Shown: positions 38,300-47,401, counted from the stretch's first letter. The stretch: 64,000 bases of DNA from a virus (IMGVR_UViG_3300044568_004364); one strand, 5' to 3'. Program-made: numbers and translations. Notes: generated by a model not told the origin, from the sequence alone.

Positions 38300-39400
38300 T
38301 TATTTGTATCCTTTGTAATATTCTGCACGCATATCATCAATAGCAGCACGGTCATATTGTGCTCCAATGATTTCGGTAAGTTTTAAGAATGCTGCCATCT
38401 TTTCGGCATTATCTCGTTCAGCATCACCACGATATAATCCTTGTGCGCCTTTTTCAAATAATATATTTGCAAATGCATTGATTAATCGTGTTTGTTCTGC
38501 TGGTGCAATATATTTCTTAATGAGTTCCGCTGCGCCAATAAACGAATCCATCATCTTCATATCCGCATCTGATGGCGTACGCTCAAAGAGTACTTTAAAG
38601 ATAACTTTAAGATCCGTAATATATGTTGATTCACTTGTTGGTATTTCACGATAGACATATAATCCATCCTGCATCATGTGTTTACCTACGCCATCTAGGA
38701 CTGGTGCTATTTTGGTGCGCAATCCATGCTGTACACTAAATGCAAGATCAGATGCTTTAATTTTCGTAGGTGTTTCTTTCTTACCTTTAAGAATGATAAT
38801 ATCACGCAGTGTTTTTGCAGATGCTGCTCTCATAATGTATTTATGAAACACACCTTTAATACCTGCTGTAATATCATTCCATGCAGATGAATGCGAGAAC
38901 ATGCTCCATGCTGTTGGTTTGCCATAAGCAAAGTCAACAAGTTCCATATCTACTTGAATGTTAATGCCAAACTCTGGGAAAGCCCAAAGCGTAATATATT
39001 GCCCCGCGCTTTTCTTAAATCCAATGAGTGAAGCATCACCAAAAGTTTTACCAGTTATGGCTTTAAGAAACTCGCCAAGGTTTTCATCTTGTATCTTATC
39101 AACCTGAGTATCTACATCGCCTACTGTATTCTTATACTTAGTAAATTCGGCTGTAGGAATTGCGCGGTTAAAAAAGTGGAATGCGCTGCCGCTAAGAAAC
39201 TCCTTGCTCTTAAAGAGTTCGCCACTCCATAATGGTAGTCCATACTTTTTCTTGTATGCTTTGTTAACTGCATCTAGTGTGCGGTCAATTTGCACCGTTA
39301 CACTATCACGGTTAATCTTTGTTAGGTCAATGCGATCTGCACCTTGGTCGCCCAACATTAAATTTCCGCCTTCAAGAATATATTGTTTAAATGATTTCAT
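38300..39400 (-). CDS. Pol-beta-superfamily nucleotidyltransferase-like protein
   Basis: LSGS...GDVD...IQVD catalytic pattern; N-terminus MKSFKQYILEGG. Confidence 0.7.
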   Translation of the reverse strand: MKSFKQYILEGGNLMLGDQGADRIDLTKINRDSVTVQIDRTLDAVNKAYKKKYGLPLWSGELFKSKEFLSGSAFHFFNRAIPTAEFTKYKNTVGDVDTQVDKIQDENLGEFLKAITGKTFGDASLIGFKKSAGQYITLWAFPEFGINIQVDMELVDFAYGKPTAWSMFSHSSAWNDITAGIKGVFHKYIMRAASAKTLRDIIILKGKKETPTKIKASDLAFSVQHGLRTKIAPVLDGVGKHMMQDGLYVYREIPTSESTYITDLKVIFKVLFERTPSDADMKMMDSFIGAAELIKKYIAPAEQTRLINAFANILFEKGAQGLYRGDAERDNAEKMAAFLKLTEIIGAQYDRAAIDDMRAEYYKGYK

Positions 39401-39460
39401 GTGATTTTGTAGCCAATAACTTTACTCGTAATAATCTATTTATAATAGATGCAACTTAAA

Positions 39461-39549
39461 TGGCGGAAGCAGAGGGACTCGAACCCCCGAGGGCTTTATA
39501 GGCCCCAGCTGTTTTCAAGACAGTGTCCTCGACCAGCCGGACTACTTCC
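39461..39549 (-). tRNA. tRNA-Ser(TGA)
   Basis: Cloverleaf, long variable arm, G73-CCA. Confidence 0.9.
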
Positions 39550-39558
39550 ATAAAATTT

Positions 39559-39635
39559 TGGTACACAGGGTGGGACTCGAACCCACAAAACCTTGCTTCT
39601 AAGGCAAGTACGTAAACCAATTCCGTCACCTGTGC
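39559..39635 (-). tRNA. tRNA-Leu(TAG), short variable arm
   Basis: CTTGC-CTTAGAA-GCAAG; A73-CCA. Confidence 0.88.
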
Positions 39636-39637
39636 AT

Positions 39638-39957
39638 TGGTGGAGACGACGGGAGTTGAACCCGTGTCCATGACGTGTGCGATTATACAATCTACAACTT
39701 ATTCTCATTTATTCAGACGAGACTCTTAGACACTTATCGTTGTGTCACGACAGCGTTATTCACAATGCTGTACAAATAGATACCGTTCGTGGTATCAACT
39801 ATCCTATGCCGTGCGAATGACAATATAGGAGTCATGTCATTCGACTCACTTAAGCAGCGAGAGCAAGTGTATTTTTGCCGTTTAGTTTTTTGACGAAGGG
39901 AGTCACCCGTGTGTTGCAATATAATCTCTCATGTCATGTCGAAACCATGACATCCCC
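39638..39957 (-). ncRNA. ssrA: tmRNA, tag peptide (A)GKNTLALAA
   Basis: 5' GGGGATG...TTCGAC; 3' GACACGGGTTCAACTCCCGTCGTCTCCACCA; G3:U70 pair; tag frame 39879-39850 ends LAA*. Confidence 0.93.
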
Positions 39958-41344: not shown

Positions 41345-41419
41345 TGGTGGCCTGTTGAGGAATCGAACCTCAATTTGGAGTTTCGTAAACTCTCGTCTTA
41401 TCCATTGGACCAACAGGCC
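41345..41419 (-). tRNA. tRNA-Arg(ACG), intact, inside the HNH insertion
   Basis: GGCCTGT/ACAGGCC; AGAGT-TTACGAA-ACTCC; CCA; starts 5 nt after the HNH stop. Confidence 0.88.
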
Positions 41420-41424
41420 TTTTT

Positions 41425-42198
41425 TTATTTATGTCTTCCAAATTTCCATCCATCAGGAGGTAATTCATTTTTTTCAATACGTGCAGATTTTGTTCCATTG
41501 TTAATCCAAACAGTATCAACACTTGAAAATTTCATATTACCAGAATCAATTTGTTTACGCATTCGAATTTTAGCCGAATCAGAAAGTTTTTTTCTAGTTT
41601 TTTTATCTAGTGTTTTACCTTTTCTATTTTTTATTTTTAATAAATGAAGACATTCAGATGAGCACGTTTTATATGTCTTAGAACATTTAAGCTTTAAAAA
41701 AGTACAATTACATATAACACATGTAAAAATTATTTCTATATTTTTCCACTTATTTCTTCCTAAAATCCATCCTTCTGGTATTTTGTCTTCTTTTAATATT
41801 TTTTTATTTTCTTGTAATTCAATATTGCACATCCAACGAGTTCCATATTGTGAATTGCACTCACCACTTTGAGAAATTTTCATACGTTTTGATGCCAATT
41901 TAGAGTGATGTTTTCGAATTTCTTCATACAGACGAGAATTCTTAATATAGGATATACTGCGCTCTTCACATCGCATCGCCATCATATGGCATGCATGAAT
42001 TGTTTGACTATTCTTATGAATCTTATAAAGAAGGATGTGGGCGATCCAATGTTCTCTTCCAGTTAAAACTACTAGATTAGAAGTATCATCAGATCCGCCC
42101 ATTGATTTCATCAAGATATGGTGCTTTTCAGTATATCCAGTTGCCGGATTATTTTGTCGATATGAAATTAGATTATCGTAAATACGTTGGTAGTTCAT
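41425..42198 (-). CDS. Free-standing HNH homing endonuclease (MobE-like)
   Basis: MNYQRIYDNLI..YTEKHHI..SMGGSD..SNLV.LT.REH..AH.LL; two W.N...ENK/SAR..P.GW..GR repeats; own TATAAATA at 42204-42211. Confidence 0.9.
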   Translation of the reverse strand: MNYQRIYDNLISYRQNNPATGYTEKHHILMKSMGGSDDTSNLVVLTGREHWIAHILLYKIHKNSQTIHACHMMAMRCEERSISYIKNSRLYEEIRKHHSKLASKRMKISQSGECNSQYGTRWMCNIELQENKKILKEDKIPEGWILGRNKWKNIEIIFTCVICNCTFLKLKCSKTYKTCSSECLHLLKIKNRKGKTLDKKTRKKLSDSAKIRMRKQIDSGNMKFSSVDTVWINNGTKSARIEKNELPPDGWKFGRHK

Positions 42199-42226
42199 AA
42201 ATGTATTTATACAAATGTGAACTTTA

Positions 42227-42285
42227 CGAACCCCGGACCTCACGGTTCGTAGCCGTGTGCTCTGATCCAGCTGAGCTAAGAGTGC
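42227..42285 (-). pseudogene. 5' part of tRNA-Arg(ACG), interrupted in the T-loop
   Basis: GCACTCTTAGCTCAGCTGGATCAGAGCACACGG-CTACGAA-CCGTGAGGTCCGGGGTTCG, then unrelated AT-rich sequence. Confidence 0.85.
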
Positions 42286-42342
42286 ATAAAAAAAAGACTG
42301 CAAGATGCAGCCTCTTTCCGTTAAAGTTATTCTTGTTAAGAT

Positions 42343-44893: not shown

Positions 44894-44903
44894 TTTTGAA
44901 AAT

Positions 44904-44978
44904 TGGTACTGCCACGGGGAGTTGAACCCCGCTCTAATGGTTGAAAACCATTTGTCCTAACCGATAGACGATGGCAGC
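44904..44978 (-). tRNA. tRNA-Glu(TTC)
   Basis: AATGG-TTTTCAA-CCATT; CCA. Confidence 0.9.
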
Positions 44979-45154: not shown

Positions 45155-45233
45155 TGGTCTCCTAGGTGAGAGTCGAACTCACAATATCACCGCCCCTTGA
45201 AGGCAGTCGCTTTGCCAGTTTGCGTACACGGAG
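45155..45233 (-). tRNA. tRNA-Leu(CAA), with mismatched acceptor stem
   Basis: CTGCC-TTCAAGG-GGCGG; canonical T-arm; two acceptor mismatches. Confidence 0.65.
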
Positions 45234-45244
45234 GATTGAAAAAT

Positions 45245-45287
45245 TGTACGGTGTTTTCTTTGGATTCAGATCACCGAAATTCTGAAT
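45245..45287 (-). ncRNA. H-type pseudoknot motif, copy 2
   Basis: ATTCAGA-ATTTCGGTGA-TCTGAAT-CCAAAGAAAA-CACCG. Confidence 0.65.
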
Positions 45288-45479
45288 AATCATTGCATTC
45301 GTAATAGCTGCAGCGTTAACCACAGTTACAATAGTAACGAAATTAGTACTGCCACGGGGGAGTTGAAATGGGAGTGTACGCAGAACCTTCTACTGCAACA
45401 TGGGTTTGTAAGCCACTATCAACGCACGATACACTGGCATGCTGTTGGTATTCTCTCAATATGAATATTGAGATTAAAT

Positions 45480-45554
45480 TGGTTGCGGCGGGTGGGATTC
45501 GAACCCACGTGCACGGCTTATGAGACCGTTGAGTTACCTCTACTCTACCCCGCG
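45480..45554 (-). tRNA. Initiator-type tRNA-fMet(CAT)
   Basis: 5' CGCGGGG with C1:A72 mismatch; loop CTCATAA; CCA. Confidence 0.85.
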
Positions 45555-45620
45555 ATTGAAAATCTTAACTGTAACGGTATCACAGTCATGCTCCGATGGG
45601 ACTACCCATACTGTTGAAAA

Positions 45621-45663
45621 TGTTCGGTCTTTTCTTTTACATCAGGCGACCGACACCCTGATG
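45621..45663 (-). ncRNA. H-type pseudoknot motif, copy 1
   Basis: CATCAGG-GTGTCGGTCG-CCTGATG-TAAAAGAAAA-GACCG. Confidence 0.65.
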
Positions 45664-45794
45664 GCGTGCATATTATACGATATATGCAAACGAGTAAAAT
45701 TATTGACTACTCATAAAAACCTCGTTTATGATGACACCTATTTGTGCTCGCTTGGGCGTTTCAGGTACTCCCTCGTCATGAACCTTGAATTACT

Positions 45795-45942
45795 ATTTAT
45801 ATATTGTTGAGATATTATATATACTTTTTTATGAAAGTAAATAACTTTTTTTCAACTTTTTTCTTGATCGGAACAGCTTCGATTTATTTACCGTTGCCGT
45901 TCGTTACGAGATTATTATACACTATTTTTTGCGCAATGTAAA
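45795..45942 (-). promoter_or_regulatory. Stacked promoters for the tRNA operon: two sigma70-type and one late
   Basis: TTTACA-N17-TATAAT (45914-45942), TTTACT-N16-TATAAT (45814-45841), TATAAATA near 45795. Confidence 0.75.
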
Positions 45943-45996
45943 TAACTTTATGCAAAAAAATGCATATTCCTATATTGTATATGGTGTAAAAGACGC

Positions 45997-46035
45997 AAAA
46001 AACCGCATCTAAGCACGCGGCCAGATGCGGTTTTT
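45997..46035. terminator. Bidirectional intrinsic terminator after the ClpP-like gene
   Basis: aaaaaaccgcatct...agatgcggtttttt. Confidence 0.8.
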
Positions 46036-46053
46036 ATGAAATATGAGATGACC

Positions 46054-46707
46054 TTATGAGTCTTTCTTAGATTTTTTGGCAGTCTTAGGAGTAGGCTGTG
46101 GTGCCGCTGAGGCAGCTTCTGCAGCCTCACGTGCTGCAGTGCGTGCCTCAAGACGTGTCATTACTTCGGCTGCAGTCATCCAAATGTCACGGTCTTCAAT
46201 CATATCTTTAATTTCAGCTTCACTCAAGAAGTCCGTATACATATCCTTAAAGAGACGTTCACTCCATCCACGCTCGTGAATTAAGCAGCTATACATCTCG
46301 CCACCTTTGCCCATTGTTTGTGAGCTATAGTTGTGAAACAAGAATACACTATGATCAGTAATCATATATTCATCTGCCATAAGGAAGATAAGAGTTGCTG
46401 CGCTCATGCATGCTCCTTCAACACTTGCAATGATATGCGCTTCCGTTTCAGATAGTGCTTGTAAGAATTGAATGGTTGTAAAGATGTTACCGCCTGGGCA
46501 ATTAATGTGAAGTTTAATTACATCAGTTGGGCGGCTATTACGTATATCATGAAACCAATCAACATATTCTGATGGGTCACCAATAGTATCACTAAGGTAA
46601 TATTCCTTTACTGCTCCATAGTCATTTGCATATGAATGCGTATTGTCAGGTTTGAATAGTTTGCCGAATAGTTCGGCGTTATTTTTATTTTTATTATTTT
46701 TATGCAT
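46054..46707 (-). CDS. ClpP-family serine protease
   Basis: LHINCPGG, VEGACMSAATLIF (Ser), FLFH (His), DRDIWMTA.E. Confidence 0.85.
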   Translation of the reverse strand: MHKNNKNKNNAELFGKLFKPDNTHSYANDYGAVKEYYLSDTIGDPSEYVDWFHDIRNSRPTDVIKLHINCPGGNIFTTIQFLQALSETEAHIIASVEGACMSAATLIFLMADEYMITDHSVFLFHNYSSQTMGKGGEMYSCLIHERGWSERLFKDMYTDFLSEAEIKDMIEDRDIWMTAAEVMTRLEARTAAREAAEAASAAPQPTPKTAKKSKKDS

Positions 46708-47401
46708 GTCCGAATAGTTTACTTTTATTGTATTCATTTATTGTATCTATCAACCCAGGAACCCAGGTGTCTCTCTTCTCAACAAAAACGAGAGGCTCTG
46801 TTGAATTTTCAACGGCCATAAGTATTACTAGTTGTGGCACAGGTATACCAGTGCGTTCTTCAAACATGATTGCATATGCTGCAGCCTGCATGAAATAGCT
46901 CTGTATATGATCACGTGTCTTTACACGAGAGCTTGTCTTAAAGTCAACAATACTATGTTTACCATTAAATTTTGCAACAAGATCCACACGACCTGCAACG
47001 CCAAGATGATTGCTATAAAGAGGACATTCTTGTAGCACAACTTCATCAATGTTTGCGTCAATGATAGTTTGTATTGCGCCAAACATACCCTTCACGTGAG
47101 GCATTTCTTGAGGATCAAAATAGTGCTCTTCATTATTAAGATAACGCTCTGCAATGGTATGCATTGCAGTACCACGTGTTGCAGCATGCCGCATAACACG
47201 ATTTGCTTCTTCTTCGCCTACACGTGCGCGCCATTCACGTATACCATCCTTGCTAAGTACACTTAATACTGTTGTAATGCTAGGATAACGACGTCCGTCT
47301 GGTGTAACATATTGGCGTCCAGTTTTTCCAGTGACTGCATCAAGATCGTCATAATCTAGCTTAACAGGAGTGTGCTTGAAACATTTGCGAGCTATCTTCA
47401 T
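46700..47401 (-). CDS. PD-(D/E)XK (Cas4/RecB-like) exonuclease
   Basis: YPSITTVL, RGTAMH, AGRVD, IVDFKTS, YFMQ..AYA.MFEE. Confidence 0.9.
   Translation of the reverse strand: MKIARKCFKHTPVKLDYDDLDAVTGKTGRQYVTPDGRRYPSITTVLSVLSKDGIREWRARVGEEEANRVMRHAATRGTAMHTIAERYLNNEEHYFDPQEMPHVKGMFGAIQTIIDANIDEVVLQECPLYSNHLGVAGRVDLVAKFNGKHSIVDFKTSSRVKTRDHIQSYFMQAAAYAIMFEERTGIPVPQLVILMAVENSTEPLVFVEKRDTWVPGLIDTINEYNKSKLFGHA

Follow-up and report, generated by a model that had tools for sequence, protein, structure and literature searches.

Among described RNAs, the closest in architecture to the element reported here are the tRNA-like structures (TLS) of plant viruses, all classes of which have a pseudoknotted mimic of the acceptor stem with a 3' CCA (PMC8127992). 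In the TLS-Val of turnip yellow mosaic virus, the TLS-His of tobacco mosaic virus and the TLS-Tyr of brome mosaic virus, a hairpin loop pairs with a 3'-proximal strand to form an H-type knot, a single-stranded tail of 4 nt, of the discriminator-plus-CCA type, extends from the end of the helix, and the viral RNA is shown in this form to host tRNA enzymes (PMC8127992). Closest in genomic setting are rnaC (species 1) and rnaD (species 2) of phage T4, genes for stable RNAs other than tRNAs that lie in a T4-type tRNA cluster, on the tRNA strand, and that have tRNA-like 3' ends. We know of no function for either RNA, nor of any assigned, since their sequencing in the 1970s, to the non-tRNA RNAs interleaved in phage tRNA arrays. 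Small H-type knots also occur in preQ1-I aptamers (RF00522), whose A-rich 3' loop occupies the minor groove of stem 1, and in the type III antitoxins (ToxI, CptI, TenpI) and phage pseudo-ToxI, short pseudoknotted RNAs of about 35-45 nt to which the concept of a phage decoy is attached. Here, we describe a 43-nt pseudoknot present in two copies in the tRNA array of a virus, IMGVR_UViG_3300044568_004364, of which a stretch of 64,000 nucleotides (hereafter, the window) was analysed. The window derives from metagenomes of lake water. The element is a real, strongly conserved and uncatalogued pseudoknot RNA family of the tRNA arrays of uncultured lake phages.

Direct reading of the sequence places both copies on the minus strand of the window, copy 1 at 45663-45621 and copy 2 at 45287-45245, each built of eight segments of the same lengths (7/4/5/1/7/10/5/4, 43 nt in total): the 5' strand of stem 1 (S1), loop 1, the 5' strand of stem 2 (S2), a junction nucleotide, the 3' strand of S1, an A-rich loop 3, the 3' strand of S2 and a tail. 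Copy 1, a type A pseudoknot as defined below, reads CATCAGG-GTGT-CGGTC-G-CCTGATG-TAAAAGAAAA-GACCG-AACA. Its S1 5' strand (45663-45657) is followed by loop 1 (GUGU, 45656-45653), the S2 5' strand (CGGUC, 45652-45648), the junction G (45647), the S1 3' strand (45646-45640), loop 3 (UAAAAGAAAA, 45639-45630), the S2 3' strand (GACCG, 45629-45625) and the tail (AACA, 45624-45621). Copy 2, of type B, reads ATTCAGA-ATTT-CGGTG-A-TCTGAAT-CCAAAGAAAA-CACCG-TACA, with the S1 5' strand at 45287-45281, loop 1 (AUUU) at 45280-45277, the S2 5' strand (CGGUG) at 45276-45272, the junction A at 45271, the S1 3' strand at 45270-45264, loop 3 (CCAAAGAAAA) at 45263-45254, the S2 3' strand (CACCG) at 45253-45249 and the tail (UACA) at 45248-45245. 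Beyond the sequence itself, the assignment is supported by pair counts and by the scores of a covariance model, R1, which are 65 bits for copy 1 and 63.7 bits for copy 2, and for copy 1 also by the family alignment. The two copies differ at 15 positions, eight of which make up four doubly changed pairs (S1 pairs 1, 2 and 7, and S2 pair 5). The original prediction, made from the DNA alone, was thus correct in describing two identically spaced H-type pseudoknots of 43 nt in which three stem-1 pairs and one stem-2 pair change jointly. A search for direct repeats picked up the same pair independently (45 nt, 71% identical, 376 nt apart), and the shared 3' part, with 15 specified bases, occurs exactly twice in the window at 0 mismatches. 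Tandem Repeats Finder reported no tandem array between 44500 and 46200.

The likeness of the copies goes well past chance, and the element recurs well beyond this phage. A pattern of 20 specified bases, drawn from the positions common to both copies, matched 24 IMG/VR contigs, and all 24 proved to be true members with intact S1 and S2. Altogether, pattern scans yielded about 50 further copies in IMG/VR and metagenome contigs, representing 30 distinct cores and 34 distinct contexts. As a guard against circularity, the scans were rerun with S2, S1 or loop 3 unconstrained. When S2 was left free, all true members still paired CGGU(C/G) with (G/C)ACCG, apart from the wobble-compatible changes UGGUC/GACCG in contig L028 and CGGUG/CGCCG in contigs L026 and L029. 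The S1-free scan returned four extra matches, all lacking stem 1, and hence no new member, indicating that S1 has an invariant TCAG/CTGA core throughout this collection; divergence wider than this core lay beyond its reach. With loop 3 free in both sequence and length, AAAGAAAA stayed invariant and one member had a 9-nt loop 3. The loops are thus almost invariant across the family, as xUUU for loop 1 and AAAGAAAA for loop 3. The window phage and contig L012 carry both type A and type B, and in each of five larger contigs (65-112 kb, 31-87% complete) model R1 finds one copy; its search of 25 sources revealed no additional diverged copies.

Searches in other collections returned no member. None of the 50 pattern matches obtained from 185,579 genomes of bacteria and archaea was a true member. 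With each copy as a BLASTN query, the 50,697 isolate phage records of INPHARED yielded no true match, only chance matches of 20-21 nt in Bacillus phages, and BLASTN of the 1.2-kb region matched tRNAs only. Scanning against Rfam 15 with cmscan, for the whole window at gathering thresholds and for slices of 1.1 kb and 96-101 nt at E values up to 10, gave only chance matches to unrelated families; on the short slices, the cyanophage motifs wcaG (RF01761) and manA (RF01745) were likewise without a match at E up to 10. Within the reach of covariance models, these results exclude ToxI and the other antitoxin RNAs, the preQ1 classes, wcaG and manA. None of the tRNA calls made with ARAGORN or with Infernal and the Rfam tRNA model (RF00005) overlaps either copy. 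One pattern match, shared by two Pseudomonadota metagenome-assembled genomes (L141 and L154), lies directly before a Shine-Dalgarno sequence and an ATG, where a 5-bp CATCAG/CTGAT hairpin is followed by AAAGAAAA; this match lies outside the family and may be an unrelated element of a 5' untranslated region.

The family alignment bears out the pairing. In the 30 distinct cores (alignment A2), 98.6% of pair cells hold standard pairs, against 27-37% in controls in which the 3' partners were slid by 1-3 columns, and none of 500 shuffles reached the observed covariation score. S2 is paired in 100% of its cells in 30 sequences. S1 pairs 1, 2 and 7 and S2 pair 5 show compensatory changes, and the rest of S2 shows wobble-compatible single changes only; the columns fixed by the search pattern could not vary by construction. 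Taken together, these data support the earlier suggestion that covariation between the two copies reflects a selected RNA structure, and the search of uncultured-phage contigs supplied the covarying homologues that had been proposed as its check. The same early reading had failed to recognise the family, in keeping with the lack of any match in Rfam 15. Each stem is favourable on its own (S1 -3.7 to -10.8 and S2 -3.3 to -7.0 kcal/mol), and the nested minimum-free-energy fold switches between S1 and S2 among members. Taken alone, neither copy is exceptional in nested folding (z -1.3 to -1.9). Both the ordinary nested folds and the alternation between stems are what one would expect when a pseudoknot is given to a program unable to represent it.

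Members fall into two types. Type A has G7-C18, C16-G35 and usually G17, and type B has A7-U18, G16-C35 and usually A17. The 29 tabulated cores comprise 13 of type A and 16 of type B, with one core of each type deviating at position 17; L028, added to the alignment by hand, has U17. All differences between the types are located at the S1/S2 junction, as one concerted change of five positions. Upstream of the knot, a hairpin is common in the family, and its sequence is not specific to TGCA. Copy 1 is preceded, 3 nt from the pseudoknot, by a hairpin (P0, 45667-45688, minus strand) in which TGCATAT and ATATGCA close an 8-nt loop, as seen in the sequence and in the minimum-free-energy fold. A TGCA...TGCA hairpin had been proposed before each copy; the one before copy 1 is a good 7-bp hairpin, but copy 2 has only 4 bp with an 11-nt loop. 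At the position homologous to P0, type A relatives have a 7-bp hairpin with an AAAGA loop and compensatory changes in 5/7 pairs, a count that leans towards structure since the register of two rows was set by hand. A subgroup of type B (L004:4324-4412, L012:8624-8711, L026:3521-3608 and L085:99-187) has about 90 nt of conserved upstream sequence in common, including a compensated hairpin (CCTCTG...CAGAGG changed to CCC-GAAA-GGG), and the RNA of these phages may reach about 130 nt.

The 3' end of the element resembles that of the tRNAs around it. The tail is fixed at 4 nt, and no insertion or deletion ever falls between S2 and the CA. A43 is present in 30/30 cores and C42 is conserved in at least 90%, position 40 is U or A, and position 41 in the 29 tabulated cores is A in 15, C in 8 and G in 6, so that a full CCA tail is found in eight (TCCA in seven and ACCA in one). 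Downstream of the terminal CA, the 34 element ends show A (58%) or T (32%), then T at three consecutive positions (100% each), followed by C (52%), A (61%) and A (67%). The 256 encoded tRNA CCA ends of the same loci are followed by A (64%) or T (26%) and by T at 82, 88 and 83%, in the general pattern A/T, TTT, C/T, A, A. The likeness of these ten-base profiles indicates that the CA of the element is in register with the CA of the tRNA CCA. In the window, the trailer TTTTCAA follows the tail of copy 1 directly (45614-45620, minus strand), the same motif as after tRNA CCA ends according to the position profile.

Every copy lies in a phage tRNA array, on the strand of the tRNAs. Among the 34 non-redundant contexts, a co-directional tRNA is found within 400 nt in 32 and an antisense tRNA in none; 11 have no tRNA within 400 nt upstream, and an open reading frame never starts directly after the element. 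In 18 contexts, the next tRNA begins 6-12 nt past the tail, and the gaps between tRNAs in the same loci have their mode at 7-9 nt. Trailer and spacing alike therefore match those of the tRNAs themselves, and the position of the element fits the earlier proposal that it is processed from the tRNA transcript. In the window, copy 2 is separated by an 11-nt spacer (ATTTTTCAATC, 45234-45244, minus strand) from tRNA-Leu(CAA) (45155-45233, minus strand; ARAGORN and Rfam tRNA match). The first tRNA of the array, tRNA-Met(CAT) (45484-45553, minus strand; ARAGORN, Rfam 52.7 bits), lies 67 nt past copy 1 and 196 nt before copy 2. Metatranscriptome contigs of river and estuary origin cover copy 1 with identical sequence and link it to tRNA-Met, and a relative's type B copy is among them; they are weakly compatible with transcription, as they give neither strand nor RNA ends and may stem from DNA carry-over.

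How does the element compare with the structures cited at the outset? As in a TLS, S2 pairs a hairpin loop with the strand directly 5' of a 4-nt tail, and the two stems would be expected to stack on each other. Unlike a TLS, it comes from a DNA phage and is a free-standing small RNA gene in a tRNA array rather than a genome 3' end; it has no T-loop, D arm or anticodon-arm analogue, the core contains no UUCGAAU-type loop, and the loop of the upstream hairpin (4-8 nt) is without anticodon-loop features. Its tail is NACA or NGCA more often than NCCA, its loop 3 is long (10 nt) and A-rich, its S1 has 7 bp, and it shares neither sequence similarity nor an Rfam match with the plant-virus structures. 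The resemblance to the T4 RNAs lies in the context and the tail only. In the T4 record (NC_000866, 70908-71171), the rnaC gene ends in ...CCCGG-CGUUUCG-U-A and is followed by CA, giving a U-ACA tail as in type B, and rnaD ends in ...GCGC-A-CC followed by A. To judge from these sequences, a tail in "ACA" rather than CCA may recur as a hallmark of stable RNAs other than tRNAs in tRNA clusters of the T4 type. Unlike the element, the T4 RNAs measure 119-139 nt and rnaC has a canonical T arm; a search of T4 positions 69500-73500 with model R1, filters off, peaked at 5.8 bits (E 0.48), thus finding no comparable 43-nt pseudoknot there.

We tentatively favour the reading that the element is a small RNA, excised by the tRNA-processing machinery, whose coaxial pseudoknot of 7 and 5 bp with a 4-nt tail mimics the acceptor/T arm of a tRNA. 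The elements would be genes for a small structured RNA, transcribed within the polycistronic tRNA precursor, from which the common trailer and the spacing suggest release by the enzymes of tRNA maturation. In the tRNA operons of E. coli, the AU-rich trailers just 3' of the CCA are RNase E sites, the following tRNA receives its 5' end from RNase P, and exonucleases do the subsequent trimming. By the same steps, an endonuclease would cut in the A/T-TTT trailer, RNase P would free the 5' terminus of the following tRNA and 3' trimming would proceed to N-N-C-A, leaving a product of about 45-70 nt made of the variable 5' hairpin and the 43-nt core. The core would fold as an H-type pseudoknot with the A-rich loop 3 in the minor groove of S1. 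Since S2 adjoins the tail, stacking of S1 (7 bp) on S2 (5 bp), as in classical H-type knots, would give a quasi-continuous helix of 12 bp that terminates in a 4-nt single-stranded overhang, the dimensions and geometry of an acceptor/T-arm minihelix with discriminator and CCA. H-type pseudoknots that bear a 3' RCCA are cut by bacterial RNase P within loop 1 (PMC12710915); the last base of loop 1 in the element is an invariant U, directly 5' of S2. The RNA would act through a protein or ribozyme that reads the 3' acceptor end of tRNAs, most plausibly as a competitor or decoy. Its partner might be RNase P, the CCA-adding enzyme, a 3' exonuclease or a host toxin directed at the 3' ends of tRNAs.

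Several observations weigh against such mimicry. Position 41, the equivalent of C74, is degenerate, and the absence of a true CCA from most copies implies poor pairing with the P15 loop of RNase P or with the ribosomal A and P loops. The core lacks the T-loop and elbow by which RNase P and CCA-adding enzymes measure the 12-bp arm. Loop 1, loop 3 and the TCAG/CTGA core of S1 are more nearly invariant than a mimic needs, which suggests a more specific partner or ligand, and the cleavage-site context alone could account for the conserved terminal A. The compensatory evidence in S2 comes down to a single switch that coincides with the split into types A and B, and hence to few independent events. 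Finally, no tRNA with a CGGU(C/G)/(G/C)ACCG acceptor stem was found in these loci, so that no mimicked identity can be assigned, and C1-G72 is present alike in the Pro, Lys, Phe, Ile, His and Met tRNA genes of these phages. Effectors acting at tRNA 3' ends include toxSAS pyrophosphokinases (CapRel/FaRel2 type), MenT-like nucleotidyltransferases and acceptor-stem nucleases. A bolder form of the proposal, in which the 43-nt minihelix is the first acceptor-end mimic of DNA phages and serves as a decoy or competitive inhibitor of immune effectors at tRNA 3' ends, of RNase P or of the CCA-adding enzyme, types A and B being two target specificities, is unlikely in our estimation.

Other explanations have to be weighed against excision and mimicry. 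The element may instead act in cis on the tRNA precursor, by insulating tRNAs from misfolding, blocking 3'-to-5' exonucleases or antiterminating against Rho through RNA polymerase, in the way that the put RNA of HK022 and rRNA leader elements are processive antiterminators that bind RNA polymerase. The arrays amount to 5-10 kb of untranslated RNA, the near-invariant loops would suit binding to a conserved host machine such as RNA polymerase, and the copies lie mostly near array heads: copy 1 precedes the first tRNA, as do L012a, L105 and L106, and the 11 contexts without an upstream tRNA point the same way. This position is however confounded by synteny among related phages, and in L004 and L011 the element comes after 11-13 tRNAs. 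Moreover, with a tRNA 6-12 nt downstream, RNase P would cut the element off the elongating polymerase almost immediately, and a roadblock seems needless where tRNAs already resist exonucleases. We therefore hold a role in cis to be possible yet doubtful. It is distinctly unlikely that the element is instead a protein-binding decoy or antitoxin-like RNA directed against a host defence nuclease, of the pseudo-ToxI type or a sponge, and unrelated to tRNA ends. Such a function would agree with the compact pseudoknot and its A-rich linker, with the confinement to phages in these scans, where none of the bacterial-genome matches was true, with sequence conservation that extends to the loops, with a second AAAGA motif in the upstream hairpin loop of type A, and with the coexistence of two types that are distinct at a single structural site, as two target specificities would lead one to expect. 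But those same bacterial-genome matches contain no counterpart to be mimicked, and the type III antitoxins known so far vary widely and are specific to their hosts, unlike this core, which hardly varies among phages with unrelated flanks. Type III antitoxins are also tandem repeats of 34-40-nt units, cut by their own toxin and encoded beside its gene; the element occurs as single copies parted by a tRNA and bears tRNA-type processing signals, the open reading frames at the locus include no adjacent toxin gene of the ToxN/AbiQ, CptN or TenpN type, and even 100-nt slices match neither ToxI nor another Rfam antitoxin. Of the original prediction's proposal of a decoy or a ToxI-like antitoxin, membership in the latter class thus falls away, while a decoy role is conceivable, with the anatomy indicating the tRNA 3' acceptor end as the thing mimicked.

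A ligand-binding aptamer like preQ1-I, SAM-II or guanidine-III, with types A and B reading different ligands, would share the topology of the small pseudoknot aptamers and their highly conserved single-stranded nucleotides. The concerted five-position change sits exactly at the helix junction, where such aptamers bind their ligands, and the knot competes with a nested fold made of S2 and an inner helix of 3 bp that includes the invariant G30. At that junction, however, loop 2 is one variable nucleotide (G, A or U) and not a pocket, and no Rfam riboswitch matches. The element carries no expression platform, Shine-Dalgarno sequence or terminator, and it is followed at 6-12 nt by a tRNA rather than by an open reading frame such as a queuosine gene. 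From preQ1-I in particular, named at first for its similar architecture, it differs further by an S1 of 7 bp instead of 5, by a loop 2 without the specificity cytosine and by the absence of a match at E up to 10, and membership in that class is not supported; we consider an aptamer of any kind very improbable. Hardly credible at all is a site that acts as DNA, be it a recombination site, a hairpin promoter or an inverted repeat bound by a protein. In its favour, stem 1 is palindromic at the DNA level and the conserved core might serve for binding, but the orientation is that of the tRNAs in 34/34 contexts, the flanks are those of tRNA genes, and the distant strands of S2 covary although nothing in a duplex DNA site calls for it. 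An excised RNA that imitates the acceptor end of tRNAs is the explanation that we retain, with the reserve expressed above.

In the window, copy 1 lies between two promoter-like sites and the first tRNA of the array. A consensus scan gave sigma-70-like matches on the minus strand (45814-45942) at 45942-45914 (11/12) and 45841-45814 (10/12), each carried by one unit of a duplicated 27-nt segment (45822-45848 and 45923-45949; 78% identical, 101 nt apart). These matches probably represent the start of the tRNA operon, and the two may possibly be tandem promoters. Another candidate promoter, directly before copy 1 and overlapping the hairpin (TTTACT, a 15-nt spacer and TATAAT), was dropped on account of its short spacer and of the better matches 150-250 nt upstream, and it is further discounted by an RNA-library contig that runs through the site. 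A terminator-like hairpin with a T run (45998-46035, minus strand; consensus scan) follows a ClpP-like open reading frame (46054-46737) and parts it from the RNA operon. Around the copies, the locus holds tRNA genes and spurious short open reading frames only, the nearest real ones upstream encoding the ClpP-like protease and a PD-(D/E)XK nuclease.

Some further features of these arrays deserve mention. The 67 nt between copy 1 and tRNA-Met (45554-45620, minus strand) are bounded on both sides by TTTTCAA-type trailers and contain ATGGG/CCCAT and ACTGT/ACAGT hairpins without a CCA-like end, and could be a further small RNA in a tRNA slot. The tRNA-Met(CAT) gene itself (45484-45553) has an irregular acceptor stem, for which Infernal needs a deletion in the 5' strand, and is followed by A-ACCA. 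Between this gene and copy 2, a 20-nt fragment (45340-45359, minus strand) matches the 3' end of tRNA-Glu (44900-44919) at 95% identity, ...GGCAGTAC-TAATTT included, by which sequence it is readable as a decayed duplicate of a tRNA 3' half. In relatives, type A copies (L003, L012, L013, L105, L106, L007, L053 and L097) nearly always have tRNA-Arg(UCU) as the next tRNA, 8-9 nt away in five contexts, and the invariant loop 3 includes AGA, the codon read by this tRNA; the association is probably one of synteny. Elsewhere in the window, a complete phage transfer-messenger RNA (tmRNA) occupies 39638-39957 (Rfam 93.8 bits, tag GKNTLALAA), overlapped by a second, probably spurious ARAGORN "tmRNA*" call (39365-39730) that spans two tRNA genes. 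A gene resembling tRNA-Arg(ACG), at about 42230-42290, seems broken in its T arm, just upstream of a 292-residue open reading frame (41425-42303) without a Pfam match, and an intact tRNA-Arg(ACG) follows at 41345-41419.

We found no description of the motif in Rfam 15 or in the literature, although a 2023 catalogue of 10,006 viral candidate RNAs, about 8,500 of them unnamed RNAs from IMG/VR, could list it without a name (PMC10690425). The family appears to be new, and its kinship is one of kind, with the small RNAs of viral tRNA regions that are stable or mimic tRNAs. The tRNA arrays of phages are now viewed as tools of counter-defence, in which phage tRNAs replace cleaved host tRNAs. The element described here is nearly invariant among phages with unrelated flanks, absent from Rfam and, at 43 nt, short enough for direct biochemistry and crystallography. 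If the tentative mimic reading is true, DNA phages use the architectural trick of plant RNA viruses, a pseudoknot that imitates the acceptor arm. An RNA that engages RNase P, the CCA-adding enzyme or a toxin acting on tRNA ends would be a minimal natural model of how acceptor ends are read, and would represent a new class of RNA anti-defence factor, an RNA-only counter-defence beside tRNA replacement. If its role is merely one of processing or insulation, the element would be a punctuation signal for multi-tRNA transcripts. The definition of the family would in addition help to annotate hundreds of uncultured freshwater phage genomes.

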